The position numbers and the translations under genes are program-made. From Candidatus Staskawiczbacteria bacterium (lineage in GTDB: Bacteria; Patescibacteriota; Minisyncoccia; Minisyncoccales; Staskawiczbacteraceae), in contig CAIMWV010000027.1 of NCBI GenBank assembly GCA_903845295.1, forward strand, positions 8,819 through 72,818: 64,000 bases of DNA, written 5' to 3'. Positions 4,665 to 43,940 of the stretch are shown here, in pieces (position 1 is the first letter of the stretch; the number at the start of each line of letters is the position of its first letter). The notes beneath the pieces were generated by a model. That model was given only the letters and a program-made list of their open reading frames with translations. It was not told where the DNA came from and made no database searches.

Positions 4665-5423
4665 ATGCAAAAAGAATTTGAGTGGCTTTTAAAAGAAAAA
4701 TATAATAATAAGCCGACCAGGAATTTTTATAAAGACGTAGGAAGATTAAAGGCGGGCGAGCCTTTAGATTATGTAATCGGATTTACTGAGTTTTTGCGAT
4801 GTAAAATTGATTTATCTAAGAAACCTTTAATACCAAGGCCAGAAACAGAATACTGGGTAGGAGAAGTAATAAAAGAAATAAAAAAAGAAAATCATTCGTC
4901 GCGCGGCTCCTCAGGACAAAATTTGCGAATTTTGGATATGTTTGCCGGGTCAGGGTGTATTGGTTTGGCAGTTTTGAAGAATATTAAGAATAGCGAGGTT
5001 GACTTTACTGACAAAGCTAAAAATTGCCTGGAACAGATAAAGATTAATTTAAAAATAAATAAAATAAAATCTGGCAGTTATGCAATAATCCAATCTGATA
5101 TTTTTGACAGTGTAAAAGACAAATACGATTACATTTTTGCCAATCCGCCATATATCGCAATAAAAAGAAGAAATAAGATACAAAAGTCAGTTTTAAAATT
5201 TGAGCCGAAGACGGCTTTATTCGGCGGGAGCGACGGACTTTTTTATATCAGAAAATTTTTGAAAAATGCAAAAAAGCACCTGAACGAGAGCGGAGAAATC
5301 TTTATGGAGCTTGATTTTGTGCAAAAAAATGAAATAGAAGGGCTTACTAAAAAATACAAATACAAAAAATACGAATTTTGGAAAGACCAATTCGGAAAAT
5401 ATAGGTGTTTGGTTTGCGGATAA
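4665..5423 (+). CDS. prmC: release factor glutamine N5-methyltransferase
   Basis: DMFAGSGCIGLA SAM-binding block and FANPPYI (NPPY) catalytic motif. Confidence 0.85.
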   Translation: MQKEFEWLLKEKYNNKPTRNFYKDVGRLKAGEPLDYVIGFTEFLRCKIDLSKKPLIPRPETEYWVGEVIKEIKKENHSSRGSSGQNLRILDMFAGSGCIGLAVLKNIKNSEVDFTDKAKNCLEQIKINLKINKIKSGSYAIIQSDIFDSVKDKYDYIFANPPYIAIKRRNKIQKSVLKFEPKTALFGGSDGLFYIRKFLKNAKKHLNESGEIFMELDFVQKNEIEGLTKKYKYKKYEFWKDQFGKYRCLVCG

Positions 5424-5426
5424 TTC

Positions 5427-5441
5427 TTATTGTGCGACAAA
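5427..5441 (+). repeat. module-boundary motif TTATTGTGCGACAAA
   Basis: Starts 4 nt after prmC stop; 5425-5441 is 17/17 identical to 42196-42212; GC-rich pur island begins downstream. Confidence 0.8.
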
Positions 5442-12149: not shown

Positions 12150-13421
12150 ATGGATTTTTTAGGAACTATAAAGCTTGTTTTCAGGACTCTGCTTGCCAGA
12201 AAAGGCAGGTCGTTTTTGACTATTTTGGGAATTGTTATCGGGGTTGGCGGAGTTATTATTATAATTTCTTTGGGAGCCGGCGCGCAGAGCTTGATTTTAG
12301 GGCAGGTTACAAAACTTGGTTCTAATTTATTAAGCGTTGCGCCCGGTAAAAGTAATGAGAAAGGTCCGCCGTCACAAGTTTTTGGAATTACTGTTACAAC
12401 TTTGGCGAACAGCGATGCAGATTCTTTAAGAAGTAAAACGCAGGTTCCTCACGCTTCGGCCGTCTGCGCAATGGTCAGAGGCTCGATTACGGCCACGTGG
12501 CAGAATAAAAATGTAGATACTAATTTTACCGGCACGGAAAGCAGTTATTCAGATGTGGTAAGCTTTACAATGCAGGAGGGTCAATTTTTTAACCAGCAAG
12601 AAGAAAAGGGGAATGCTAATGTTGCGGTTTTAGGTTCTACTACGGCTGATGAATTATTTGGTGGAACCGGGGTCAGTCCGATTGGGCAAGTTATTAAGGT
12701 AAAAAGTTCTCTGCAAACACAGGCCGGCGGAATTCCTTTGAGAGTAATCGGCGTTATTGCACCTAGGGGCAGTTCATTCTTCCAAGATAACGACGACCAG
12801 GTTTTTATTCCTTTGACTATTGGCCAAGAGCAGCTTCTAGGCATACATTATTTGCAGGCAATAAACATAAAAGTTGATTCGTCAGGAAATATACAGCAGA
12901 CAATCGATGATGTTACTAGAGTTTTAAATCAAAACCACCGCATACAACGCGCTGTAGACGCGGACTTCACTGTTTACAATATTGCTGATGCAATAAGTGT
13001 TTTAAGCACCATTACAAACGCCCTCAGGCTATTTTTGACTGCAATGGCTGCAATTTCTTTGATTGTCGGCGGAATTGGAATTTTAAATATTATGTTGGCC
13101 ACCGTGGCCGAAAGAACAAGGGAAATTGGTTTGAGAAAAGCAGTTGGTGCAACAAACTCGGCAATCGCCAGGCAATTTTTACTGGAAGCAGGGGCCTTAA
13201 CTTTCCTGGGGGGAATTATAGGAATTATTATTGGCGTAATAATTTCTTATCTTATAACATTGCTGATGCATTATTTGGGATATGACTGGGCTTTTGTGGT
13301 TTCCATAACCTCGGTTTTACTAGCAGTTGGAGTTTCAATTTTAACCGGTGTGATTTTTGGTTTGTATCCGGCGTTGAAAGCATCAAAACTAAATCCAATA
13401 GACGCATTAAGGTATGAATAA
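12150..13421 (+). CDS. ABC transporter permease (MacB/FtsX family)
   Basis: N-terminal TM, periplasmic domain, C-terminal FtsX-type 3-TM block (REIGLRKAVGAT). Confidence 0.85.
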   Translation: MDFLGTIKLVFRTLLARKGRSFLTILGIVIGVGGVIIIISLGAGAQSLILGQVTKLGSNLLSVAPGKSNEKGPPSQVFGITVTTLANSDADSLRSKTQVPHASAVCAMVRGSITATWQNKNVDTNFTGTESSYSDVVSFTMQEGQFFNQQEEKGNANVAVLGSTTADELFGGTGVSPIGQVIKVKSSLQTQAGGIPLRVIGVIAPRGSSFFQDNDDQVFIPLTIGQEQLLGIHYLQAINIKVDSSGNIQQTIDDVTRVLNQNHRIQRAVDADFTVYNIADAISVLSTITNALRLFLTAMAAISLIVGGIGILNIMLATVAERTREIGLRKAVGATNSAIARQFLLEAGALTFLGGIIGIIIGVIISYLITLLMHYLGYDWAFVVSITSVLLAVGVSILTGVIFGLYPALKASKLNPIDALRYE

Positions 13422-14658
13422 CAGAAAAGCATTCAGGCAATCTATAAAAGCATTATCTGCGAACCCTGTCCGCACGGTTTTGACTACCTTGGGAATTGTG
13501 ATCGGCATTGCCACAGTCATAATGGTCTTATCAGCCGGAGCCGGCTTTAGAAGTTTGATAAATAATGAAATCCAATCTCTCGGAAGCGACACTTTATTTA
13601 TTAAAACAAGAGTCCCGCCAACAACGAAAAATCGCGCCCAGACATTAAGCCCCGGAATTGCCATTGGGATCACAAGCTTTAAACAGCGCGACTTAGACGA
13701 TATTAAAAAGTTGAACAACGTTGTTAATGATTATGGCATGGTTACCGGCATGGCGGTGGCGAGTTATAGAAATAATCAAAAGAGCGCGCTTTATTTTGGG
13801 TCTTCGTCAGAAAGATTTATTATAGACCGGCACACACTAAAAGAGGGTAGATTTTATACAAAGGCGGAAGACTCGGGAGCCGCACAGGTGGTTATTTTGG
13901 GAAGCAATATAGCAGATGATTTATTTGTTCAAGATGATCCATTGGGGAAATTACTGCGCGTCGGAAATCTAAATTTCCAGGTTATAGGAGTTTATAATTC
14001 TCAGGGTTCTGTCGGAGGCGATGGAGCAGACGACAGTATTTATATGCCATTAGCAACCGCGCAAAAAAAAATGTTAGGCGTTGATTATATAACCGTGGCG
14101 GTAGTTCAGTTAAAAAACACGAATTTGAGTGACGCCACAGCCGCGCTTATCAGGACAACTTTGAGGCATAATCACAATATAACAAATCCTGACAAAGATG
14201 ATTTTATTGTAATGACTCAGGCGCAGGTTCTTGATATTTATAATACAATCTTTAACGGAATAACTATTTTGCTTATCTGCATTGCCTCTATTTCTTTGGT
14301 TGTCGGCGGAGTCGGAATTATGAATATTATGTATGTGGTTGTTACCGAGAGAACAGCTGAAATAGGATTAAAAAAAGCGCTGGGGGCAACCAACTCAGAC
14401 ATCCTGAAAGAATTTTTAATAGAATCTATTTTAGTCACGGTTTTAGGCGGAATCATAGGCATTTTATTCGGCTCTATTTTAAGCTGGCTGGTTTCTATTA
14501 TTGCAAATTCTAATGGACTGATGTGGATATTTACAGTGCCGCTATATGCAGTAGTTATCGCCGTTGGAGTTTCTGGCACCATTGGAATGGCTTTCGGGGT
14601 TTTGCCGGCAAGGTCGGCCGCAAAATTAGATCCAATAGAGGCCTTGCGGTATGAATAA
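13414..14658 (+). CDS. ABC transporter permease (MacB/FtsX family), paralog
   Basis: Same architecture (AEIGLKKALGAT); 8-nt overlap with the upstream permease. Confidence 0.85.
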   Translation: MNNRKAFRQSIKALSANPVRTVLTTLGIVIGIATVIMVLSAGAGFRSLINNEIQSLGSDTLFIKTRVPPTTKNRAQTLSPGIAIGITSFKQRDLDDIKKLNNVVNDYGMVTGMAVASYRNNQKSALYFGSSSERFIIDRHTLKEGRFYTKAEDSGAAQVVILGSNIADDLFVQDDPLGKLLRVGNLNFQVIGVYNSQGSVGGDGADDSIYMPLATAQKKMLGVDYITVAVVQLKNTNLSDATAALIRTTLRHNHNITNPDKDDFIVMTQAQVLDIYNTIFNGITILLICIASISLVVGGVGIMNIMYVVVTERTAEIGLKKALGATNSDILKEFLIESILVTVLGGIIGILFGSILSWLVSIIANSNGLMWIFTVPLYAVVIAVGVSGTIGMAFGVLPARSAAKLDPIEALRYE

Positions 14659-14740
14659 CAAATTTGAAAATTTAAAAGGCATTGCAAAACAAACAATAGA
14701 GAGTTAAAATTAACACAATAAATTAACCTTTAAAAAAAAC

Positions 14741-15977: not shown

Positions 15978-18458
15978 ATGTCAATAATTATTCCGGGCTT
16001 AATTTTAGTTTTTTTATTGATTGTTATGGCATTCATCATGGTTTTAAATGCCGAGACAAATGAAAAAAACTCCGTTTTCGGCGGATTGGAGATGGTTTTG
16101 TTTTTAGTGATGATGCCAAAAAATGCTCCCAAAAAAGAAGGTGAAGCGCAGAAAGAAGAAAAGATGATGATAGCACAGATGGAGCAAGTTTTTGCCAATT
16201 TTTTATTTTTAAAAAAACCCAGGCCATTTCAAGCTCCGCCCTGCTGTACATTTGAAATTGCTTCTCAAATTGGAAGTTCTGACATCTCTTTTTATGTGGC
16301 GGTTCCAAAATATTTAGATTCTGTTTTTGAAAAATATGTGCAGGGCGTTTATCCTAGCGCGGTGGTTGACAAAGTCCCTCAGGATTATACGATTTTTGAA
16401 CCGCAGGGAGCAACCGCTGGGGCATATCTGCAGCTTTCTGAAAGTTCTCTTTTTCCTATAAGCACATACCAGTTATTAGAAACGGATCCTTTGGCTTCAG
16501 TAACAAATAATTTAAGCAAAATTTCAGCAAACGAAGGCGGGGCAGTGCAGGTATTGATAAGGCCCTTATCAAAATTGAATTTAAGAAAAAAAGGAGAAAA
16601 AGCTTTAAAAAAAATAAGGGAAGGAAAACCTGTCAGGGATGCTGTAATCCAGGCATACCAGGGGCCCATAATGGAGGAATTTGAAAATATGTGGAAAGCG
16701 TTATTTGGTAAGGATTTAAAGAAAAAAGAGGAAGAGTTGGGCCTAAGGGACAAAGAACAGTCTTTTGACCAAAAAGGATATGACGCAATTCAAAGCAAAA
16801 TTCAAAAACAGCCGTTTGAGGTTAACATCCGGGTTGTGGCATCCGCAGAATCGGAAGGCCGCGCGGAAGAAATTTTAAATCATCTGACTTCAGCTTTCAG
16901 CCAATTTTCATTGTCTGCAACAAACAGTTTAGAGGTTAAAGAAGTTTATAAAAAAGAATTGCAAAAATTAGCTTATGATTTCAGTTTCAGAAATTTCAAT
17001 GCAAAGCAGTCAAATATCCTGAACTTGGAGGAATTGGCAAGCATTTATCATTTTCCAACACATTATATTGAAACTCCGTATATTAAAGCTGCAAAGTCAA
17101 TAACAGCCGCTCCGCCATCGGATTTGCCGGAAAAAGGTGTGCTTACAATCGGAAAAGTCAGTTATAGAAATGAAGAAAGAAAAGTTTGTTTTGCCACACC
17201 CACGGACAGACGCAGGCATTTCTATTACATTGGCCAGACCGGTACCGGAAAATCATGGTTTATGAAGAGCATGATAATACAGGACATCATAAACGGCGAA
17301 GGCGTTGCGGTTATTGACCCCCATGGAGAACTTATTGAGGATGTTTTGGCTTTTATCCCAAAAGAAAGGATTGATGACGTAGTCATTTTTGAACCCTTTG
17401 ACATTGAAAGGCCATGTGGTTTGAATATGTTGGAGTATGACAGCCCGGAACAAAAAGATTTTGCGGTCCAGGAAATGATTGCGATTTTTATGAAACTTTT
17501 TCCGCCGGAAATCATCGGTCCGATGTTTGAGCACTATATGAGAAACGCGATGCTGGCTCTGATGGCAGACAAGGATAATCCGGGAACTTTGGTTGAAATT
17601 CCCAAAATGTTTACCGACCCGACTTTCTTGCAGCAGAGAATGGCAAAGGTTTCTGATCCTGTTGTAAGGTCTTTCTGGACAAAAGAATGGGGGCAGACAA
17701 CCGGTTCTACAAGGTCTGACATGTTGGGATACGTGGTTTCAAAGCTGGGCAGATTCATTGAAAATGAAATGATGCGAAATATTATAGGCCAGTCTCATTC
17801 CGGATTCAATCTGGCGGATATAATGGACGGCAAAAAAATCTTTTTAGCAAACCTGTCTAAAGGTTTGACGGGGGAGGTAAACAGTTCTTTGCTTGGTTTG
17901 ATTTTGGTTTCCAAAATGCAAATGGCCGCCATGAGAAGGGCAAAGATAGCAGAAGCTGACAGGAAAGACTTTTTCCTTTATATCGACGAGTTCCAGAATT
18001 TTACAACAGATTCAATCGCTTCCATCTTGTCTGAAGCCAGAAAATATAAATTGAGCCTGATAATGGCGCACCAGTATATGCCGCAGTTAAAACAGGAAAT
18101 AAGAGATGCGGTTTTGGGAAACGTCGGTACAATCGGCGCATTCAGGATCGGGGCTGAAGATGCCGAAAACCTGGAAAAACAGTTTGAGCCCGGATTTTCA
18201 AGATTTGACCTGGTAAATTTGGACAACTTCACGCTCATAATAAAAATGATGATAAACAATAAAATTTCCACGCCATTTAAAATGCAGACGCTTCCTCCGC
18301 CCAAAGGAAGGCCGGAAATAGTAGAAGCAATCAAAAAAATATCTAAGCTGAAATATTCGCGTCCAAAGGATATTGTTGAACAGGAAATTATGCAACGTTC
18401 GTTTGTTGAAGTTCCGCCGGCCGCGCCGGCCCAGCCGATTATTCCTCCCAAAAAATAA
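15978..18458 (+). CDS. membrane-anchored VirD4/TraG/TraD-like (HerA/FtsK-type) ATPase
   Basis: N-terminal TM segments; Walker A GQTGTGKS; Walker B FFLYIDEFQNF; MAHQY block typical of coupling proteins. Confidence 0.7.
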   Translation: MSIIIPGLILVFLLIVMAFIMVLNAETNEKNSVFGGLEMVLFLVMMPKNAPKKEGEAQKEEKMMIAQMEQVFANFLFLKKPRPFQAPPCCTFEIASQIGSSDISFYVAVPKYLDSVFEKYVQGVYPSAVVDKVPQDYTIFEPQGATAGAYLQLSESSLFPISTYQLLETDPLASVTNNLSKISANEGGAVQVLIRPLSKLNLRKKGEKALKKIREGKPVRDAVIQAYQGPIMEEFENMWKALFGKDLKKKEEELGLRDKEQSFDQKGYDAIQSKIQKQPFEVNIRVVASAESEGRAEEILNHLTSAFSQFSLSATNSLEVKEVYKKELQKLAYDFSFRNFNAKQSNILNLEELASIYHFPTHYIETPYIKAAKSITAAPPSDLPEKGVLTIGKVSYRNEERKVCFATPTDRRRHFYYIGQTGTGKSWFMKSMIIQDIINGEGVAVIDPHGELIEDVLAFIPKERIDDVVIFEPFDIERPCGLNMLEYDSPEQKDFAVQEMIAIFMKLFPPEIIGPMFEHYMRNAMLALMADKDNPGTLVEIPKMFTDPTFLQQRMAKVSDPVVRSFWTKEWGQTTGSTRSDMLGYVVSKLGRFIENEMMRNIIGQSHSGFNLADIMDGKKIFLANLSKGLTGEVNSSLLGLILVSKMQMAAMRRAKIAEADRKDFFLYIDEFQNFTTDSIASILSEARKYKLSLIMAHQYMPQLKQEIRDAVLGNVGTIGAFRIGAEDAENLEKQFEPGFSRFDLVNLDNFTLIIKMMINNKISTPFKMQTLPPPKGRPEIVEAIKKISKLKYSRPKDIVEQEIMQRSFVEVPPAAPAQPIIPPKK

Positions 18459-24638: not shown

Positions 24639-25256
24639 ATGAAAAAAAATACTATAATTTTAATTGTAATAATTATTATCGCCATAATCGCAATCGGCGG
24701 ATATTTTGTACACACAAAACTATCTCTGCAAAAAGTGCAAACACCCGTTGCAGATAAAACCGCTGACTGGAATACTTTAAACAACGATGAATTCGCTTTT
24801 TCTATAAAATATCCAAATGATTTTTTCGATGCCGGTCATGATCCCAAAATTTTGGTTGGTGATTGTAACTACGATGTTTTTCCGGGAAAATGCCCTAATA
24901 TTGTAAATGAGGTCGTTGAAGGTTCGCCCAGCGGATCATCCACTGAAGCTATTATAAGCAATTGGGGAAATCGGGGCGGTAAGGAAATGGCCATAAACAA
25001 TACTACTTACTGTTATTACAATATAGGAGATGCAGCAATGATGCATCAATATTATTATGATTATTATGCTACAGTAAAAAATCAAAAATGTATTGTTGTA
25101 CAGTTAGATTCCGTTTCGGTTAGTTGCGACGTTTATCTGCCGCTTGAACCCGGAAATACGGAACAAGCAAAAAATTATAATGATTGCTTGACTAAAAATG
25201 CAGAGAGACCAAAAATATTGAACGAAATAATTAATACTTTTAAATTTATAAAATAA
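24639..25256 (+). CDS. membrane-anchored hypothetical protein
   Basis: N-terminal TM IILIVIIIIAIIAIGGYFV; no motif recognised. Confidence 0.5.
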   Translation: MKKNTIILIVIIIIAIIAIGGYFVHTKLSLQKVQTPVADKTADWNTLNNDEFAFSIKYPNDFFDAGHDPKILVGDCNYDVFPGKCPNIVNEVVEGSPSGSSTEAIISNWGNRGGKEMAINNTTYCYYNIGDAAMMHQYYYDYYATVKNQKCIVVQLDSVSVSCDVYLPLEPGNTEQAKNYNDCLTKNAERPKILNEIINTFKFIK

Positions 25257-26674: not shown

Positions 26675-27651
26675 TGAACCTAAAGCGCGCTGTCGGAGGA
26701 TTTTTATTATCGTTTGTGTTTTTAGTATTTTTTGCATATATGCTTTCCGGCGTTAAATGGATTCTTTTGAATTACATACAAATTCCAGGCGAATCAGTGC
26801 AAAGCACAAACAGTATAAATGAAGAAGCGGCTTTGGGAAGCATTTCTGCAGGCGTTCAAAATGTTATACAGCAAAATACTGCTCAAAATATTATCCAACC
26901 CGCTGTTGAGCCGCAAATAATTACCAAACCGGAAATTAATGCAAAATCCGCAATTTCGGTTCAAAGCAGCCTCCAGGATATAAATAAAACTATTTTTGAA
27001 AAGGATAGCAATATACGGCTACCGATCGCCAGCCTTACTAAACTGATGACAGCAGTTGTTGTTTTAGATAATTATAATTTATCAACTATTTTGCAGGTAG
27101 ATAAAATTGCTGATTCGCAGGATCCCTTAAAACAGGACGTAAAACTGGGCGATATAATGACAGTGGAAAACTTTTTAGACATAATGATGGTTGGTTCTTC
27201 CAACAAGTCAGCGTATGCTTTGTCTGAGTTGGCCGGGGAGCAAAAATTTGTGACCCTAATGAACCAAAAAGCGAAAGATTTAAGCATGCAAGACACCTTT
27301 TTTGCCGATCCTACTGGTTTGAGCTCAAGAGATGTTTCCACAGCGGAAGATTTAGCAAGGCTTGCTGATCATATTTTGAAAAATTATCCTAAAATAGCTG
27401 ACATAAGCAAACTGAAGGAGCTTTATGTGCCAGGGTTTGGAAATGTAGAGAATACAGATCAGCTTTTAGGCGAGATTCCTGATATAATCTGCAGTAAAAC
27501 CGGCTTTACTGCAGATGCTAAAGGGTGCCTGCTTCTGGTGATAAATAATCCTAATAATAATGATTATTTAATCAACGTAATTTTAGGGGCTGATGACAGA
27601 TTTTCTGAGATGAAAAAATTAATTAATTATTCAAATGCGACGTGCAAATAA
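26674..27651 (+). CDS. D-alanyl-D-alanine carboxypeptidase (PBP5-like)
   Basis: SxxK (ASLTKLMT), SxN (GSSNKS), KTG (SKTGFT). Confidence 0.8.
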   Translation: MNLKRAVGGFLLSFVFLVFFAYMLSGVKWILLNYIQIPGESVQSTNSINEEAALGSISAGVQNVIQQNTAQNIIQPAVEPQIITKPEINAKSAISVQSSLQDINKTIFEKDSNIRLPIASLTKLMTAVVVLDNYNLSTILQVDKIADSQDPLKQDVKLGDIMTVENFLDIMMVGSSNKSAYALSELAGEQKFVTLMNQKAKDLSMQDTFFADPTGLSSRDVSTAEDLARLADHILKNYPKIADISKLKELYVPGFGNVENTDQLLGEIPDIICSKTGFTADAKGCLLLVINNPNNNDYLINVILGADDRFSEMKKLINYSNATCK

Positions 27652-27668
27652 CAGATTATAATTAACAG

Positions 27669-28730
27669 ATGACAATACTCACCTTTAATGTTATCAAGGT
27701 TTTCATTCTGGCGGCTGTTGCTTCGGCTATAGCTATTTTTTGGTGTCCGCTGCTGACGCATTTTTTGTACAAACATAAATTCTGGAAAAAAAGCGCGAGG
27801 CAGAAAGCAATTTCTGGCGAAGATGCAGTTGTTTTTAATCATCTACACAAGGAAAAGGAAGTCGGCACGCCCCGCATGGGAGGTCTTCTTGTTTGGCTCA
27901 CAGTTATTTTTATTATTTTTTTGTTTTTTATATTATCTTTAATCTTTCCAAATACATGGCTGGCTAATTTTAATTTTTTATCAAGGGGCCAGACATGGCT
28001 GCCGCTTTTTACATTAATTGTTGCATCATTTGTAGGATTAATAGATGATATTTTAGTTGTTAAGGGCTGGGGGAAATATATTGGCGGGGGAATCTCTTTT
28101 AAAAAGCGGGCATTGCTTGTAATTTTAATCGGCCTCATCGGGAGCATCTGGTTTTACCAAAAGTTAGGGTGGGATACGGTTTATATTCCTTTTTTTGGCG
28201 ACTTGTCCATTGGATTGTGGTATATTCCTTTATTTATTTTAGTGACCGTTGCCTGCTGGTCCGGCGGCATAATAGACGGCTTAGACGGCCTTGCCGGAGG
28301 AACCTTTGCATCGATTTTCGGTGCGTTCACTATAATAGCTTTTTCTTTAGGCAAAATTGATCTGGCGGCCTTCTGCGCAGTTGTTGCAGGAACCTTGTTT
28401 GCTTTTTTATGGTTTAATATTCCTCCTGCCAGATTTTATATGGGGGAGACGGGCATACTTGGATTGACAACCGTGCTGTCTGTCATAGCTTTTTTAACTG
28501 ATTCTGTTTATGTTTTGCCCGTAATCGCCGGTCTTTTAGTGATTGAAGTTTTGTCTGTAATAATCCAGCTTTTATCCAAAAAATTCAGGAAGAAAAAAGT
28601 ATTCCTTTCAACGCCGATTCATCACCATTTCGAGGCTATTGGCTGGCCCTCATACAAAGTAACAATGCGAGCCTGGATTATAGGTATAGTATTGGCCTTC
28701 GTAGGCGTTGCGATAAGGCTGCTGAGATAA
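27669..28730 (+). CDS. mraY: phospho-N-acetylmuramoyl-pentapeptide transferase
   Basis: GLIDDILVVKG, DGLDGLAGG, polytopic membrane protein. Confidence 0.9.
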   Translation: MTILTFNVIKVFILAAVASAIAIFWCPLLTHFLYKHKFWKKSARQKAISGEDAVVFNHLHKEKEVGTPRMGGLLVWLTVIFIIFLFFILSLIFPNTWLANFNFLSRGQTWLPLFTLIVASFVGLIDDILVVKGWGKYIGGGISFKKRALLVILIGLIGSIWFYQKLGWDTVYIPFFGDLSIGLWYIPLFILVTVACWSGGIIDGLDGLAGGTFASIFGAFTIIAFSLGKIDLAAFCAVVAGTLFAFLWFNIPPARFYMGETGILGLTTVLSVIAFLTDSVYVLPVIAGLLVIEVLSVIIQLLSKKFRKKKVFLSTPIHHHFEAIGWPSYKVTMRAWIIGIVLAFVGVAIRLLR

Positions 28731-28780
28731 GTAATTCTTGTTCCATCTTATTTTTTTATTTCTGTATATTTGTCCAAAAA

Positions 28781-29656
28781 ATGCCTGAATATATGCAAAG
28801 AAAAACTTTATGTCAAAGAGGGTTACTATGTTTAAAAAACCATGGTTTTTTTTGGTGTGCTAAACAACGTGTAGGTTTATTAAAGGAAAAATTAGGAAAC
28901 TTATATAAATATGGAACATTTGATATATTTAATAATAGAATTTGTATCGAAACTATTACTGCTTGTAACAGAAAATGTTATTATTGTCCTAATTCAATAT
29001 ACGATAGAGGACTAATACAAAATCTTAAAAAAATGGACACAGATTTATTTTATAAAATCATAGATGAATTAGCTGAGCTAAAATGGAATGGTGAAGTTGC
29101 TCCCATTCGCTATGGCGAACCGTTATTAGACGATCGCATGCCGGTTTTGATTAAATATACACGGGATAAATTACCAAATTCTAGGATTTACCTTTATACA
29201 AATGGAGATTTATTAACCGTTGATTTGTATAAAAAATTGATACTGGCAGGCGTTAACGTTTTTGCTGTAACCAAGCACCCCGGTGGCGAGCATGAAAATG
29301 TTGAAAAAGTCATTCTGTATCGTAGCTCATATGGTAATAACGGCGTTGAAGTACGCTACAACACTTTAACGAACATATTTAACCGAGGTGGCATAGTGGA
29401 AGTTAGTGAAGAAATTGACAAGACGGATGCTTGTAGAGACCAGCTACAGCAAGTTATTGTTGATTATGCAGGAAATATCGTATTTTGTTGCAATGATTAT
29501 TTTACATCTCTTAAACTCGGAAATATAAGGACCGAAAAGTTAATAGACATATGGAAAAAGCCATTTTATAAACAATTGAGAAAAGATATTAAAAATGGTA
29601 TTTATAAATTAGATATATGTAAGAAATGTAAAGTAGGCCGACCTTTATCTCTGTAA
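28781..29656 (+). CDS. radical SAM protein with C-terminal Cys-rich (SPASM/twitch-like) region
   Basis: CNRKCYYCPN (CxxxCxxC); C-terminal FCCNDY...CKKCKVG. Confidence 0.7.
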   Translation: MPEYMQRKTLCQRGLLCLKNHGFFWCAKQRVGLLKEKLGNLYKYGTFDIFNNRICIETITACNRKCYYCPNSIYDRGLIQNLKKMDTDLFYKIIDELAELKWNGEVAPIRYGEPLLDDRMPVLIKYTRDKLPNSRIYLYTNGDLLTVDLYKKLILAGVNVFAVTKHPGGEHENVEKVILYRSSYGNNGVEVRYNTLTNIFNRGGIVEVSEEIDKTDACRDQLQQVIVDYAGNIVFCCNDYFTSLKLGNIRTEKLIDIWKKPFYKQLRKDIKNGIYKLDICKKCKVGRPLSL

Positions 29657-29706
29657 AAGATGGGGGTTGCAGATTAAAGAGTTGATATAAAAAGAGCTTA
29701 TTTGGG

Positions 29707-29760
29707 ATTATCGGCATTGTTTTGGCCTTCGTAGGCGTTGCGATAAGGCTGCTGAGATAA
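29707..29760 (+). pseudogene. orphan duplicate of mraY 3' end
   Basis: Encodes IIGIVLAFVGVAIRLLR*. The last 39 nt (29722-29760) are identical to 28692-28730; the 15 nt before differ only synonymously. Confidence 0.8.
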
Positions 29761-29803
29761 ACAACTTGAAGAAAGCCTTAAAATAAGTATAATCAAAAAG
29801 TAC

Positions 29804-29874
29804 GGGCCCATAGTAAACCGGTATTACGCCTCCATGGCATGGAGGAAGACGGGGTTCAATTCCCCGTGGGTCCA
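29804..29874 (+). tRNA. tRNA-Ala (anticodon GGC)
   Basis: Cloverleaf folded by hand: acceptor GGGCCCA/TGGGTCC with G3:U70, anticodon loop aTGGCat, T-arm cgggg-TTCAATT-ccccg; no encoded CCA. Confidence 0.85.
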
Positions 29875-29878
29875 CTGC

Positions 29879-29915
29879 CTAAAATACCTCAGTAAATGAG
29901 GTATTTTAGCTGTTT
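29879..29915 (+). terminator. intrinsic terminator after tRNA
   Basis: 13-bp stem ctaaaatacctca/tgaggtattttag, then ctgtttt. Confidence 0.6.
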
Positions 29916-30044
29916 TAAGACATCTCTTTGCCCTTTTTTACCCCTATAGATATCCTACATATTTAATCGCCCAGCTATTGACTTATTTTATTTAAAATGA
30001 TAGAATATAGTATTAGTTAAAAACCTTTAATTACAGTCAAAAAT

Positions 30045-31361
30045 ATGCAAAATATGCAAACAATGAAAAAATTAATTATTACAGGCATCTTCTTATCAAT
30101 GATGTTTGTTTTGGCGTTAACAATGCCTGGCACTGTCCATGCACAATATGGATGCACCTCGAACTACCAAGAGAGATGTTCGGGAAATAATTTGTATTGG
30201 TACGACTCATGCGGTAACCAGCAAAATCTTGTCCAATATTGCCAGAACGGCTGCTACAATAACTCATGCCAGAACAATTACAACAATTACAACAATTACG
30301 GTAATTGCACCTATCACGCCTATAAACTTTGCGTGGGAAATAACATTTACTGGTATGACTCATGCCAAAACCAGCAAGACCTATATTATAACTGCACTAA
30401 CAATGGCCAGGTCTGCCAGTATGGCCAATGCACTGCATATATTCAGCCAATCCAGCCCGTAAATAATTATCCCATTAATACTTATACGGCATACTACAGA
30501 ACATCGTGCAGCGGCGATTCTATCGTTTGGTATGACTCGCTCGGAGTACGCAGCGGCTTATATAAAAATTGCACCGATAATAACAGCTGTACACTAGACA
30601 CGTGTTCTGGCAACAAATGCTTAAATACAATAAAATGCGATGGATCCACCTGTGCCGTCGGCACTGCTGACTACAATATCTACTGTGGAACTACGCCGGC
30701 GAATACAACTGCGCCGACGGACAGTCAAAACCATTGTGGCAACGGATTATGCGAAACTACTTTAGGAGAAACATCGGACAACTGTCCAAACGATTGTAAA
30801 TTAAATACGAATGCGGCCGCAAGTGCATTGTCAATTTCGTTATTTGCCAAAAAAGACTCTGGTTCTAATCAATGGCAAAAAACGGCCCAAGTCGGCCCTA
30901 ACAGCCAGGTTTATTTTATGATTTCTGCGACAAACACTTCAACAACTCCAATCGATAATGTAAGTGTTTCAGCTAATATTCCAAGTGAAATTTCTTCTTT
31001 GGGAAATTTGCAGGTTAACGGAGTTGCAGTTTCCGGAGATATAGTTTCAGGAATTAATATCGGCTCTGTCGCTCCGGCAAGCGCAAAATTAGTTACTTTT
31101 GAAGGGAAAACACAAACTATTTCAGCGGCCGGAGCAAAACAAGCAACTGCAACAAGCAATGTTTCAGGAGCCACAACACATTCAGATTCTGTTTCGATAA
31201 ATTTTAATCCTGCCCAGGCAGCTGCCGCAATTTCTAATACTCCTGCAGCGACAACCGGTTTTTGGGGATTTTTAAAACGCTGGTATTTATGGATTTTAGG
31301 AGGCCTTGTGCTGATATTCCTGTTCATTGTCGTGTTCAAACGACTTTCTTCCGACGTATAA
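30045..31361 (+). CDS. Cys-rich repeat surface protein with C-terminal TM anchor
   Basis: Signal peptide; three repeats of C..G(N/D)..(Y/V)WYDS(C/L)..Q..(Y/N)C; Thr/Ala-rich linker; C-terminal WYLWILGGLVLIFLFIVVF. Confidence 0.6.
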   Translation: MQNMQTMKKLIITGIFLSMMFVLALTMPGTVHAQYGCTSNYQERCSGNNLYWYDSCGNQQNLVQYCQNGCYNNSCQNNYNNYNNYGNCTYHAYKLCVGNNIYWYDSCQNQQDLYYNCTNNGQVCQYGQCTAYIQPIQPVNNYPINTYTAYYRTSCSGDSIVWYDSLGVRSGLYKNCTDNNSCTLDTCSGNKCLNTIKCDGSTCAVGTADYNIYCGTTPANTTAPTDSQNHCGNGLCETTLGETSDNCPNDCKLNTNAAASALSISLFAKKDSGSNQWQKTAQVGPNSQVYFMISATNTSTTPIDNVSVSANIPSEISSLGNLQVNGVAVSGDIVSGINIGSVAPASAKLVTFEGKTQTISAAGAKQATATSNVSGATTHSDSVSINFNPAQAAAAISNTPAATTGFWGFLKRWYLWILGGLVLIFLFIVVFKRLSSDV

Positions 31362-39389: not shown

Positions 39390-40883
39390 ATGAAAAAGAA
39401 AGAAGAAATAAAAAAAATCCGCGTCAGATTCGCACCATCGCCGACAGGGCCATTGCATGTCGGAGGCAGCCGGACCGCTTTATTTAATTGTCTTTTTGCC
39501 AAAAAAAATAATGGCAAATTTGTGCTGCGCATTGAAGACACTGACGTCCAGAGATCTGAACAGAAATGGACTGATGAAATTATTGAAGAGCTTAAGTGGC
39601 TGGGGATCCAATGGGATGAAGGACCGGACATCGGCGGGGAATTCGGACCGTACAAACAATCTCAAAGACTGGATATTTATGAAAAATATTTGAAAAAACT
39701 TTTAGAAGAGGATAAAGCATATTATTGCTTTTGTACAGAAGAGGAGTTAGAAGCCAACCACCAGGAACAGATGAGCAGGGGAGTGGCTCCAAAATATGAC
39801 GGTAAGTGCGCCCATTTGCCGAAGGAAACAGTCCAGAAAAATTTGGCAGAAGGAAAATCATCTGTGATAAGGTTCAGGATCCAAAATAAAAAAATCAAAT
39901 TTAATGATTTAATCCGTGGAGAAGTGGAATTTGATGCAGGACTCCTTGGGGATGTGGTAATAGCAAAAAATCTGAACGCTCCTTTATATCACTTCGCAGT
40001 TGTAGTCGATGATTTTTTAATGCAGATAAGCCATGTGATACGGGGCGAAGAACATTTGTCAAACACTCCGCGCCAGATATTGCTGATTCAAGCCCTTGGT
40101 TTTGAACAGCCTGTATACGCCCACTTGCCGTTAATGCTGAATACCGACAGGTCTAAGCTTTCCAAGCGCCAAGGCGATGTGGCATTAGCCGATTACCATG
40201 AACAGGGATATTTGCCGGAAGCTTTGGTTAATTTTATGGTTTTGCTGGGCTGGAACCCGGGAACCGAAAAAGAAGTGTTCACGATGGCGCAGTTGGCAAG
40301 GGAATTTTCAATAGAAAAGGTGCAGAAAGCAGGAGCTGTATTCAATATCCAAAGATTGGATTTTTTGAACGGGCTTTATATCCGTGAAAAACCAATTGAA
40401 AAATTAACTGAACTTTGTGTACCTTATCTCAAAGAGGCCGGACTTTTAATTGCCGGACAAATATCTGAAGCTTCGTTGCAAAAAGTAATCGAAGTTTCAA
40501 GAACCAGAATGAAAAAATTATCGGAGATTTCCGGCTTGTCAGATTTCTTCTTCCAAAATAAACTGGGCTACGACAAAGACTTACTAAAATGGCAGAAGAT
40601 GTCAGATAGCGAAGTGAAGGATTCTTTATCATTTTCAAAAAAAATATTGTCTGACACTAAAAAATGGGATTTGAAGGATTTGGAAACAGAACTATTCGCT
40701 GCATCTGATAAATTCAATTCAGAAAAAGGTTATCCTGAAAAAAATAGAGGATACCTGCTTTGGCCATTGCGCGTGGCGTTGTCGGGCAAAGATTCCTCGC
40801 CAAGCCCATTTGAAATAGCTGATATTTTAGGCAGAGAAAAAACAATAAAACGCATCGACGAAGCTATAAAGATGCTTGCATAA
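39390..40883 (+). CDS. gltX: glutamate--tRNA ligase
   Basis: RFAPSPTGPLHVGG (HIGH), KLSKRQG (KMSKS). Confidence 0.9.
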   Translation: MKKKEEIKKIRVRFAPSPTGPLHVGGSRTALFNCLFAKKNNGKFVLRIEDTDVQRSEQKWTDEIIEELKWLGIQWDEGPDIGGEFGPYKQSQRLDIYEKYLKKLLEEDKAYYCFCTEEELEANHQEQMSRGVAPKYDGKCAHLPKETVQKNLAEGKSSVIRFRIQNKKIKFNDLIRGEVEFDAGLLGDVVIAKNLNAPLYHFAVVVDDFLMQISHVIRGEEHLSNTPRQILLIQALGFEQPVYAHLPLMLNTDRSKLSKRQGDVALADYHEQGYLPEALVNFMVLLGWNPGTEKEVFTMAQLAREFSIEKVQKAGAVFNIQRLDFLNGLYIREKPIEKLTELCVPYLKEAGLLIAGQISEASLQKVIEVSRTRMKKLSEISGLSDFFFQNKLGYDKDLLKWQKMSDSEVKDSLSFSKKILSDTKKWDLKDLETELFAASDKFNSEKGYPEKNRGYLLWPLRVALSGKDSSPSPFEIADILGREKTIKRIDEAIKMLA

Positions 40884-40885
40884 AT

Positions 40886-40900
40886 TTATTATGCGACAAA
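40886..40900 (+). repeat. module-boundary motif variant TTATTATGCGACAAA
   Basis: Starts 3 nt after the gltX stop; overlaps candidate GNAT start codons. Confidence 0.65.
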
Positions 40901-41445
40901 TGACAATAAAGAAGTTTGGAAACAAAAAAATTATAATAAGAAAACTCACAAGAGAAGATCTGAAGATTGCTGACAAATTCAGAGATTTTACAAATTCCCT
41001 GGTTGCAGAGAATGCCAAAATAGCCATGAACGAGAAAATAGACCTGAAAGGCGAGCATAAATTTTTATCGGACACTCTTAATAGTGTTAAAAATAAGAAA
41101 AGAGTTTACCTTATAGCAGAATGCGACGAAAAAATAATAGGCACTGCCAGCATAACTCAGTTATCATGGAGAAGCAACCATGTAGGGGAGCTTGGTGGGA
41201 TAGCCGTTAAAGACGGCTATAGGAGATTAGGGCTTGGTAAATACATGATGGCGCAGATTATAGAGCTGGCTAAAAAAGAACTTCATCCAAAGCCTAAAAT
41301 GATAAGATTATTCGTCTATATAAATAATAAGCCGGCCATAAGGCTTTATAGAAAATTAGGTTTTAAAAAAGTGGCAAAGCTTCCAAAACACATACAATAT
41401 AAAGGAAAGTTAATTGACGAGTTTGCAATGATTTTGGAATTATAG
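40891..41445 (+). CDS. GNAT-family N-acetyltransferase
   Basis: GGIAVKDGYRRLGLGKYMM acetyl-CoA motif A; start ambiguous (40876, 40891 or 40900). Confidence 0.75.
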   Translation: MRQMTIKKFGNKKIIIRKLTREDLKIADKFRDFTNSLVAENAKIAMNEKIDLKGEHKFLSDTLNSVKNKKRVYLIAECDEKIIGTASITQLSWRSNHVGELGGIAVKDGYRRLGLGKYMMAQIIELAKKELHPKPKMIRLFVYINNKPAIRLYRKLGFKKVAKLPKHIQYKGKLIDEFAMILEL

Positions 41446-41630: not shown

Positions 41631-42122
41631 ATGAAATACCTTTGTTGGGCGATTGCGATCTGGCTGGGCCTGCTAGGAATGGTGGGCCTGGTGTTCGCGG
41701 AGGAGAAGGGCCAGACGGCGATCTGTATCGCGCCACTTGACCAGTACCTCATGCGGGCCGAGGACACGGTTGGCGAAGGCAACAGGGTGTTCATCCGCAC
41801 CTACGAGGTAACGGAAGATGGCGGCAAATACGCCATCCAAGTTGCCACGAGGGAGGGTTCGGTAACATCCTACATCAAGGCAGAGGCCTTCTGCGGCAAC
41901 TTGCGGGTGCTGGAACTCCATCTTCGGAAGTCTCCGGATGCCTACCAAGAGTGCAAGAAGGTTGGGGAATTGCTGAAACTGGCAAAGGCCTCAAACCTCA
42001 AGAAGGTCGTGGTATACAAGCGCGACAACAAAGGCGCTTGGCTAACGAAGGAATTCGTGGAGGACCCGACTGCTCCCCTTGGTGGTGACATCGAGAGGGA
42101 GGCACAAAAAGCCCTGCGATAG
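41631..42122 (+). CDS. secreted hypothetical protein (GC-rich module)
   Basis: Signal peptide MKYLCWAIAIWLGLLGMVGLVFA; aaaggag SD. Confidence 0.55.
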   Translation: MKYLCWAIAIWLGLLGMVGLVFAEEKGQTAICIAPLDQYLMRAEDTVGEGNRVFIRTYEVTEDGGKYAIQVATREGSVTSYIKAEAFCGNLRVLELHLRKSPDAYQECKKVGELLKLAKASNLKKVVVYKRDNKGAWLTKEFVEDPTAPLGGDIEREAQKALR

Positions 42123-42914: not shown

Positions 42915-43889
42915 ATGGAAAAATCATCAAAGCCAATAAAAGAACATCTGCAAGACTTTTTAGATTATTGTGAAGTTGAAAAAGGTTTGCGCGACAATAC
43001 TCAAGAGAATTATAAAAATTATCTGCAGAAATTTTTTAATTGGTTAGATCAGGCCAAATTAAGCTCTCTGCTCCCCCATCAATTGACCTCAGACCACATT
43101 TGGGCCTATAGATTATACCTTTCCAGGACCCCAAGCCCGGCTACTGGCAAATTGCTGTCAAAAGGCACCCAGAACTACTATTTAATCGCTTTAAGGGCCT
43201 TTTTAGGCTATTTTGTGGCTAAAGACGTACTTTCACTGCCTCCGGACAAAATATCGCTCTCAAAGCCAGATAGAGGCTCAAAAAGCATAAAATTCCTTAG
43301 TTTAGACCAGATTGGCAAGCTTTTAGCCTCTATTGAGCCAAAAGACGATATAAGCACCCGCGACAGGGCCATTTTGGAGGCTTTTTTCTCAACCGGCCTT
43401 AGAATTGCCGAACTTGTATCCTTAAATCTTGAACAGTTTAATAGCTTAAAAGATAAAAAAGATATGGAGCTGGGCGTTATCGGCAAGGGCGGCAAACCTC
43501 GCGTGGTTTATTTTTCAGAACGAGCTTTAAACTATATCAGAAAATATCTTGAAATACGAAACGATGTTAAGCATGCCAATCAAAAAGCCCTATTTATAAA
43601 CTTTAGGGATAAAAAAGATGATGCAGATGCCAGGCTCACACCAAGATCTATTGAAAGAATGGTCAAAAAATATGCCCTGCTTTCAGGCGTTCCGATTTTT
43701 ACTACCCCACATACCTTACGCCACTCATATGCAACAGATTTATTAAACCAAGGAGTTGACCTGCGCAGCATCCAAGAATTTCTGGGACACAGTAACATTG
43801 CCACAACGCAAATTTATACGCACGTAACCAACAAACGTTTAAGGGATATACATCATCAGTTTCATAGTGACCCTGATAAAAATAATTAA
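42915..43889 (+). CDS. tyrosine site-specific recombinase (XerC/D-like)
   Basis: N-terminal SAM-like core-binding domain; STGLRIAEL (Arg I), HTLRHSYAT (H-x-x-R), LGHSNIATTQIYTHV (catalytic Tyr). Confidence 0.85.
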   Translation: MEKSSKPIKEHLQDFLDYCEVEKGLRDNTQENYKNYLQKFFNWLDQAKLSSLLPHQLTSDHIWAYRLYLSRTPSPATGKLLSKGTQNYYLIALRAFLGYFVAKDVLSLPPDKISLSKPDRGSKSIKFLSLDQIGKLLASIEPKDDISTRDRAILEAFFSTGLRIAELVSLNLEQFNSLKDKKDMELGVIGKGGKPRVVYFSERALNYIRKYLEIRNDVKHANQKALFINFRDKKDDADARLTPRSIERMVKKYALLSGVPIFTTPHTLRHSYATDLLNQGVDLRSIQEFLGHSNIATTQIYTHVTNKRLRDIHHQFHSDPDKNN

Positions 43890-43923: not shown

Positions 43924-43940
43924 AATTGTCGCACAATAAA
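43924..43940 (-). repeat. module-boundary motif (reverse orientation: AATTGTCGCACAATAAA)
   Basis: 35 nt after the recombinase stop, 60 nt beyond the DapA-like stop; 43925-43941 is 17/17 identical to 61516-61532. Confidence 0.8.

Follow-up and report, generated by a model that had tools for sequence, protein, structure and literature searches.

How did a single enzyme gene come to lie between the essential cell-wall gene mraY and the tRNA-Ala gene that follows it, with the end of mraY present on both of its sides? The question is raised by a 64,000-nt stretch of DNA from a lineage of Candidatus Staskawiczbacteria, tiny uncultured bacteria of the Candidate Phyla Radiation (CPR; Paceibacteria), here called the window, in which all coordinates are given. 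The gene encodes a radical S-adenosylmethionine (SAM) protein, and comparison with relatives shows its insertion to be derived, at a mraY/tRNA-Ala hot spot whose content varies. The feature proves genuine and is cleanly delimited, and it belongs to an ordinary kind of strain-specific accessory-gene islet with a duplicated target-gene end. As to its origin, we regard it as rather probable, with some reserve, that recombination by host functions, anchored on the mraY tail, brought the gene in and that further recombination inside the repeats followed. The locus comprises the following features.

27669-28730, plus strand: mraY (phospho-N-acetylmuramoyl-pentapeptide transferase), intact, 353 aa (Pfam PF00953 Glycos_transf_4; TIGR00445, E 6e-48)
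28400-28740, plus strand: hyperdivergent block at the 3' end of mraY, adjoining the insertion, as seen in comparison with strain L001
28675-28740, plus strand: upstream repeat copy, consisting of the functional last 18 mraY codons and the stop, then 10 nt (GTAATTCTTG)
28741-29704, plus strand: unique part of the insertion, 964 nt (about 965 bp)
28781-29656, plus strand: BtrN-like radical SAM gene, 291 aa (Pfam Radical_SAM and SPASM)
29705-29768, plus strand: downstream repeat copy (the 'ghost' mraY end and ACAACTTG), untranslated and contiguous with the native spacer
29766-29793, plus strand: promoter-like TTGAAG-16-TATAAT 5' of tRNA-Ala, a consensus match only
29804-29875, plus strand: tRNA-Ala(GGC) (ARAGORN; Rfam RF00005, 55.5 bits)
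29879-29909, plus strand: terminator-like hairpin and T-run 3' of tRNA-Ala

The repeat search returned a 56-nt direct repeat of the mraY end (28675-28730 and 29705-29760; 93% identity, 1030 nt from start to start), the final 39 nt of which are exact (28692-28730 and 29722-29760), as a preliminary description of this DNA had already read from the letters. The exact 39-mer matches the window twice, and none of 100 shuffles gave any match. The four mismatches between the copies (offsets 7, 10, 13 and 16) are confined to third codon positions and leave the translation, IIGIVLAFVGVAIRLLR and a stop, the same in both, in agreement with the four synonymous differences described ahead of the exact part. 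Comparison with a second strain (see below) extends the repeated unit, which begins with GGATT, as far as CTTG, 8-10 nt beyond the stop codon, for a total of 64-66 nt; the right edge of the unit (CTTG) falls within the first hexamer of the promoter-like element. Outside the repeat no homology was found on either side, local alignments being no better than shuffles, and since similarity stops sharply at both edges a larger tandem duplication is ruled out. This was also the outcome that the preliminary description had named as speaking against its own account, in the form of a duplication including flanking sequence; it was looked for and is not what the alignments show. The radical SAM gene is the only sizeable open reading frame (ORF) between the copies, and tRNA-Ala(GGC) follows 44 nt 3' of the second one, both as first described. 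Over the downstream copy no Rfam RNA was detected, the tRNA being the sole match.

Nothing in the insert suggests a means of movement of its own. Pfam searches found no recombinase, integrase or transposase domain, nor was there an integrase remnant or pseudogene; the cargo ORF is flanked by non-coding stretches of just 50 nt and 48 nt, and the reported repeat pairs include no terminal inverted repeats that pair the insert ends. The earlier view of an integrase-less cassette is therefore correct. A DDE or other transposon or insertion sequence was considered and rejected, there being no transposase and no terminal inverted repeats, and the 64-66-nt duplication not being short. The only tyrosine recombinase in the window (42915-43889, with an XerC/D-like score) lies 13 kb from the insert, and no integrase-bearing element was found at the mraY 3' end in approximately 90 related mraY loci.

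The status of the islet was read from closer relatives (contigs labelled L001-L099 and P0248) and, at species level, from 80 representative mraY loci. The window-type radical SAM protein occurs on five NCBI/ENA contigs, and its second-strain relative on L001 (ENA) and on L002 and L085 (two JGI samples), which are one strain differing mutually by a single base; the carriers derive from ENA sample ERZ27247850, JGI samples 3300027896 and 3300003852, and the window's own sample. The second strain shares the architecture of the window at ~94.5% identity over 23.3-29.9 kb, and the insert junctions are identical in both lineages (on the left ...CTTG joined to TTCCATC, on the right ...GAGCTTATTT joined to [G/A]GGATT), which means one insertion event. 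In none of the 80 species-representative loci is there a radical SAM gene within 5 kb of mraY, and the gene is likewise absent from beside mraY in five closer lineages. What follows the mraY stop codon in relatives is as follows.

L098/L099: tRNA-Ala(GGC) after 45 nt
L006: tRNA-Ala(GGC) after 21 nt
L092/L093: tRNA-Ala(GGC) after 127 nt
L007: tRNA-Ala(GGC) after 143 nt
L086-L088: an 84-aa GIY-YIG gene
L090/L091: a 225-aa ORF with no known function
L095-L097: cdsA, on the opposite strand
L089 and the P0248 contig: other ORFs

The uninterrupted mraY-tRNA-Ala form that the preliminary description had proposed to look for is thus present (L098, L006, L092 and L007), and these empty sites in sister lineages uphold its claim of a derived insertion. 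Its converse, an insertion common to all relatives, is not what the relatives show (0 of 80, and the five closer lineages), although both known carriers do possess both repeats. Furthermore, the empty-site spacer of L098 (ATTGAAAAGAAATTAAAAATAAGTATAAT...) aligns with the downstream repeat copy and spacer of the window, and the downstream copy, spacer and tRNA are collinear with the empty-site relatives, so that the downstream copy is contiguous with native flanking DNA. Different single genes occupy the same place in relatives, which makes the mraY/tRNA-Ala spacer a variable slot. Among the occupied variants only the radical SAM insertion shows a duplicated gene end, the search for ghost mraY tails in L086, L089, L090, L092 and L095 having yielded only short matches at chance level.

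Precise loss of the cassette would leave the mraY body and tail joined directly to CTTGAAGAAAGCC, and a circle would carry the junction ...GAGCTTATTT followed by one repeat and TTCCATC.... A degenerate-pattern scan of JGI metagenomes for an empty site inside a carrier lineage gave only one further carrier contig. With identical junctions and no carrier/empty polymorphism found within a lineage, ongoing mobility is not supported.

Two neighbouring variants of the slot deserve mention in their own right. In a relative with 89% MraY identity (L086, ~5160-5440; also L087 and L088) the 84-aa GIY-YIG gene fills the mraY/tRNA-Ala slot; upstream of this gene lies GGGGCCCATAG, a sequence similar to the 5' end of the following tRNA-Ala gene. 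The second strain carries an extra 917-nt insertion right after tRNA-Ala (L001, 5658-6574; also L002 and L085), which encodes a 256-aa alpha/beta hydrolase and is absent from the window; a ghost 3' half of the tRNA at this insertion was considered and dismissed as not significant (379 of 500 shuffles reach its score), only GTCCAC being repeated at the ends.

The cargo itself is predicted to be a BtrN-family radical SAM enzyme and hence a sugar or cyclitol dehydrogenase. It contains the domains PF04055 (Radical_SAM) and PF13186 (SPASM; E 4e-12), its CX3CX2C motif is C61-N-R-K-C65-Y-Y-C68, with CNRKCYYCPNS aligning to CNRTCWYCPNS of BtrN, and the closest solved structure is BtrN (PDB 4m7t; phmmer E 4.5e-32, residues 50-284), with which the cysteines of the C-terminal auxiliary 4Fe-4S cluster (SPASM/twitch-type domain) also align. 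BtrN is a radical SAM enzyme that acts in butirosin biosynthesis as 2-deoxy-scyllo-inosamine dehydrogenase; the cargo shares full-length similarity and both cysteine motifs with it, but it has an extra N-terminal stretch of ~45 residues and lies near no aminoglycoside pathway. Its homologues (50-63% identity) come from Elusimicrobia, Omnitrophota, archaea and unassigned contigs, where they are surrounded by glycosyl- and methyltransferase genes and in no case lie beside mraY, and this setting suggests that the substrate is probably a sugar other than that of BtrN. The radical SAM/SPASM-like class proposed earlier from CNRKCYYCPN therefore stands as far as the domains and the motif are concerned, and the similarity searches place the protein with BtrN and not with the SPASM peptide maturases.

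Several other roles for the cargo were tried and discarded. A maturase of ribosomally synthesized and post-translationally modified peptides (RiPPs) is excluded, every NCBIfam maturase match lying far below its cut-off. The neighbouring Cys-rich protein (438 aa, 3' of the tRNA) was considered as a co-varying maturase substrate, as the preliminary description had suggested checking, but it does not co-vary: homologues follow mraY in L009, L011, L014, L015 and L016, all of which are without the radical SAM gene, so that it is a conserved mraY neighbour. The ordinary glycosyl- and methyltransferase neighbourhoods of the 50-63% homologues, without mraY, speak against this radical SAM family being a mobile cassette elsewhere, and a phage vehicle was set aside, no close relative of the protein having been found in viral contigs. 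The GC content at third codon positions (GC3) is 0.243 in the cargo and 0.35-0.41 in neighbouring genes, a foreign-looking composition that fits an origin outside this genome. Between mraY and the radical SAM gene a consensus scan found neither a promoter-like site on the plus strand nor a terminator, which makes co-transcription with mraY plausible.

The two carrier lineages are unevenly diverged along the locus, as illustrated by the synonymous divergence (dS) between the window and L001, gene by gene.

aspS: dS 0.25
D-Ala-D-Ala carboxypeptidase gene: dS 0.33
mraY, whole: dS 0.32
mraY, codons 1-240: dS 0.19
mraY, codons 241-353: dS 0.675
Cys-rich gene: dS 0.12
ORF205: dS 0.067
radical SAM gene: dS 0.035

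The radical SAM genes of the two lineages differ by 6 synonymous and 13 non-synonymous changes (protein 97% identical), the unique part of the insertion is 97.7% identical between the window and L001/L002/L085, and the synonymous divergence of the radical SAM gene differs from that of mraY with a Fisher p of 4e-11. Within mraY the 5' 731 nt are 95.3% identical between the lineages (at most 85% with other species) and the 3' 331 nt only 87.9%, which is about the distance of each lineage to other species (85-87%); divergence then falls from 10-20% to ~2% exactly at the left edge of the insert. Two histories fit this contrast. The lineage background may be ~5%, with the cassette and one repeat copy exchanged recently, in which case the exchanged unit is what an integrating circle would carry by a single crossover; the MraY cluster holds no lineage at an intermediate distance, which mildly favours such a recent exchange. 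Alternatively, clonal divergence may be ~2-3%, as in ORF205 and the end of tyrS, the core genes having been overwritten by imports from cassette-free relatives. Imports into mraY would then have to stop inside the tail because homology ends there, and overwriting the cassette would mean its loss.

Some further irregularities were observed in the same comparison. ORF205 (24639-25256) has no Pfam hit and a GC3 of 0.27, and the tyrS/aspS slot holds ORFs of 395, 239 and 183 aa in relatives and may be a second variable slot. Two other hyperdivergent patches between the window and L001 lie at 26700-26820, within the part of the D-Ala-D-Ala carboxypeptidase gene that encodes the N-terminal region (25 differences per 60 nt), and at 29876-30380, a patch of 76% identity that begins with the tRNA terminator and reaches into the Cys-rich gene at its 5' part.

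The repeat copies, for which we distinguish the haplotype blocks A/B, C/D and post-stop, form a mosaic. Of the 56 positions, 10 distinguish the functional tails of the two lineages and none distinguishes their downstream copies (Fisher p 0.0013). One breakpoint suffices to part the ten variable tail sites into two blocks, as in only 2 of 210 arrangements (p ~0.01): the window tail departs from the downstream copy within the first 17 nt alone, the L001 tail within the last 39 nt alone, and this split indicates at least one crossover or conversion inside the repeat. The downstream copy of the window (B-D-ACAACTTG) is the block-wise majority of all four copies, the other three departing from it mainly in one block each, with the functional copy of the window departing in the post-stop block as well. 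Which end is native can be read in two ways. The contiguity of the downstream copy with the native spacer is as expected of a displaced resident end; its place in the low-divergence unit also fits an element-borne copy, had the crossover taken place close to where the repeat ends on the right. Since the downstream copy is the consensus of the four, a synonymously diverged replacement end becomes weaker evidence for a foreign copy, and the preliminary description, which had taken it as such a sign, is not compelling on this point: the functional copies could have diverged through later imports kept synonymous by selection.

Taken together, these patterns lead us to favour the following course of events. 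A foreign, low-GC BtrN-family gene of ~965 bp would have entered the mraY/tRNA-Ala(GGC) spacer once, in an ancestor or donor of the two related lineages, using as homology the last 56 nt of mraY and 8-10 nt downstream. As there is no recombinase gene in the cassette, we assume recombination by the host, which may have acted either through a single crossover of a circular or looped molecule bearing an mraY-end segment, or through a one-sided homologous crossover combined with an illegitimate join (the route of 'C-terminal displacement'). Both routes have been described; for the second, PMC5361080 describes homology-facilitated illegitimate recombination in which the resident part is displaced downstream, and in the present locus homology stops abruptly at the presumed illegitimate junction, with no significant similarity past the repeat on either side. 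The upstream copy would then complete mraY, the downstream copy remaining untranslated in its native context before the tRNA-Ala promoter, and later recombination or gene conversion with breakpoints inside the repeats would have produced the block-wise mosaic copies. The hyperdivergent mraY block of ~330 nt adjoins the insert and might derive from a donor, but none was found, and later imports would explain it equally well. The one-sided recombination proposed in the preliminary description is among the favoured routes.

A number of observations weigh against this account. A homology of 64-66 nt is short for RecA-dependent integration, and all four repeat copies need at least one extra event under Campbell, one-sided or site-specific scenarios alike. 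Only two carrier lineages exist in the databases, too few to order the events, and the searches found no donor in which mraY adjoins the radical SAM gene, no circular form and no empty site in a carrier lineage. The divergence of the radical SAM gene is not significantly different from that of ORF205 (p 0.27), and the end of tyrS is equally similar, so that the low divergence of the cassette could represent the clonal background and vertical inheritance.

The foremost of the other explanations, a decayed site-specific integrative element of the kind known as a cis-mobilizable element (CIME), is possible, although we consider it doubtful. An integrase-bearing element would have entered the mraY 3' end, the 64-66-nt repeats would be its attL and attR, and deletions would have left one cargo gene, renewed movement requiring the integrase of a related element. 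Documented streptococcal CIMEs of comparable build measure 1.2-13 kb, with cargo but no recombination genes and with att sites at the 3' ends of rpmG, rpsI, fda and rplL (PMC7563491). The direct repeats at the present locus likewise cover and restore the 3' end of a conserved gene, leaving mraY intact, sites of attB type are empty in L098, L006, L092 and L007, a tRNA adjoins, and the low-divergence unit is exactly the cassette with one repeat copy, as an excised circle would carry. Against such decay, no trace of an integrase gene or pseudogene is present in the insert, whose non-coding pieces measure only 50 and 48 nt; the ~90 related mraY loci lack an integrase-bearing element at the site, viral contigs hold no close cargo relative, and the only tyrosine recombinase, 13 kb off, is Xer-like.

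We judge it rather unlikely that neither copy is foreign, the mraY end having been duplicated exactly at insertion, by staggered breaks with fill-in or by template switching in repair, and the synonymous differences having come from later mraY imports. Such a history agrees with the downstream copy of the window being the block-wise majority of the four and with the hyperdivergent mraY block (28400-28740) reaching the insertion, and selection on the functional copy would keep changes synonymous; but known transposition target duplications are far shorter than 64-66 nt, an import tract that produced the 6-site block of the L001 tail would have had hardly any homology to its right, and the arrival of the foreign gene is left unexplained. 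It seems quite unlikely that the cassette is a 'hitchhiker' free of recombinase genes, for which a copy of the 3' end of an essential, conserved gene serves as a homology arm that travels along, so that RecA of the host could loop it out of and into the mraY/tRNA-Ala site of related cells. If so, this would account for the cassette and one repeat copy being much younger (dS 0.035) than mraY (dS 0.32), and single-gene cassettes in Staskawiczbacteria would dock generally at the mraY/tRNA-Ala slot. Finally, a metagenome assembly artefact joining strain variants is highly improbable: mixed strains do occur in the source samples (L001 and L090, for example, come from the same ENA sample), but separate, independent assemblies of ENA, JGI and NCBI data show one and the same architecture, in two lineages ~5% apart, which argues against an artefact.

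Compared with CIMEs and the integrase-less islets among streptococcal integrative and conjugative or mobilizable elements (ICE/IME; PMC7563491), the locus is alike in its short cargo insert, its want of recombination genes, the repeats that restore a 3' end, and the empty sites. It differs in that no related integrase-bearing element or tandem accretion is present at the site and in that the repeats are diverged and mosaic rather than a clean att core. The radical SAM islet is at most a candidate CIME, and to our knowledge elements of this type are undescribed in CPR bacteria.

The C-terminal displacement summarized in PMC5361080, which cites Jackson et al. 2009, concerns Rhs proteins and the effector-immunity arrays of contact-dependent inhibition (CDI) and type VI secretion systems (T6SS). 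As in those arrays, incoming DNA would be anchored on a conserved segment through short homology and the resident 3' part pushed downstream as an untranslated orphan; at mraY, however, just 18 codons of an essential biosynthetic gene are displaced, the sequence of the protein stays as it was, and what came in is the gene of an unrelated enzyme rather than a new toxin tip with its immunity gene. A further likeness is to genomic islands, in that the islet has direct repeats, strain-specific cargo and atypical GC and adjoins a tRNA gene. Islands at the 3' ends of tRNA and tmRNA genes show these same traits, whereas here the mraY end is duplicated, the tRNA is untouched and there is no integrase. 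Mobile ORFs of fungal mitochondria, as at atp6 of Allomyces, carry a replacement C-terminus of the host gene, and a duplicated, diverged gene end likewise flanks the inserted ORF, but there the insertion is driven by its cargo, a homing endonuclease, in contrast to the metabolic enzyme encoded at mraY.

CPR/Patescibacteria genomes are small and thought to hold few classical mobile elements. The islet leaves current understanding standing, while documenting a route by which a single accessory gene can enter and persist beside an essential cell-wall gene without dedicated machinery; it flags mraY/tRNA-Ala as a variable slot for comparative work, and its BtrN-like cargo hints at a strain-specific chemistry of envelope sugars.

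The wider neighbourhood (23.4-40.9 kb) consists of cell-wall and translation genes, namely tyrS, ORF205, aspS, the D-Ala-D-Ala carboxypeptidase gene and mraY, then murI, murD, ftsW, murG and gltX; orthologues of mraY are 51-90% identical in Staskawiczbacteria and Paceibacteria, and the relatives of MraY place the organism in Candidatus Staskawiczbacteria. Elsewhere in the window, an 826-aa ORF (15978-18458) shows weak coupling-ATPase domains of the VirD4/TraG/HerA type, for which no link to the cassette was found.

The motif TTATT[A/G]TGCGACAAA, which holds the palindrome TTGT-N3-ACAA, has 10 matches at no more than two mismatches, against 0.43 expected by chance. Its sites in the window are at 5427, 40886, 41448, 42198 and 58076 on the plus strand and at 43925, 45224, 46373 and 61516 on the minus strand, with further sites in L001 (5663 and ~6494), L012 (6191) and L032 (617); it is absent from the radical SAM cassette. 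The copies are mostly intergenic, right after stop codons and often followed by a hairpin and T-run. Three consecutive copies bound single genes (GNAT, 40876-41445; ORF163, 41631-42122) near the Xer-like recombinase, and one copy, with a degenerate second, flanks the alpha/beta-hydrolase insert of L001. Lastly, a 69-nt repeat of 71% identity (13355-13423 and 14592-14660) is found at the ends of two adjacent ORFs, and looks like a case of tandem paralogous genes rather than a ghost gene end.

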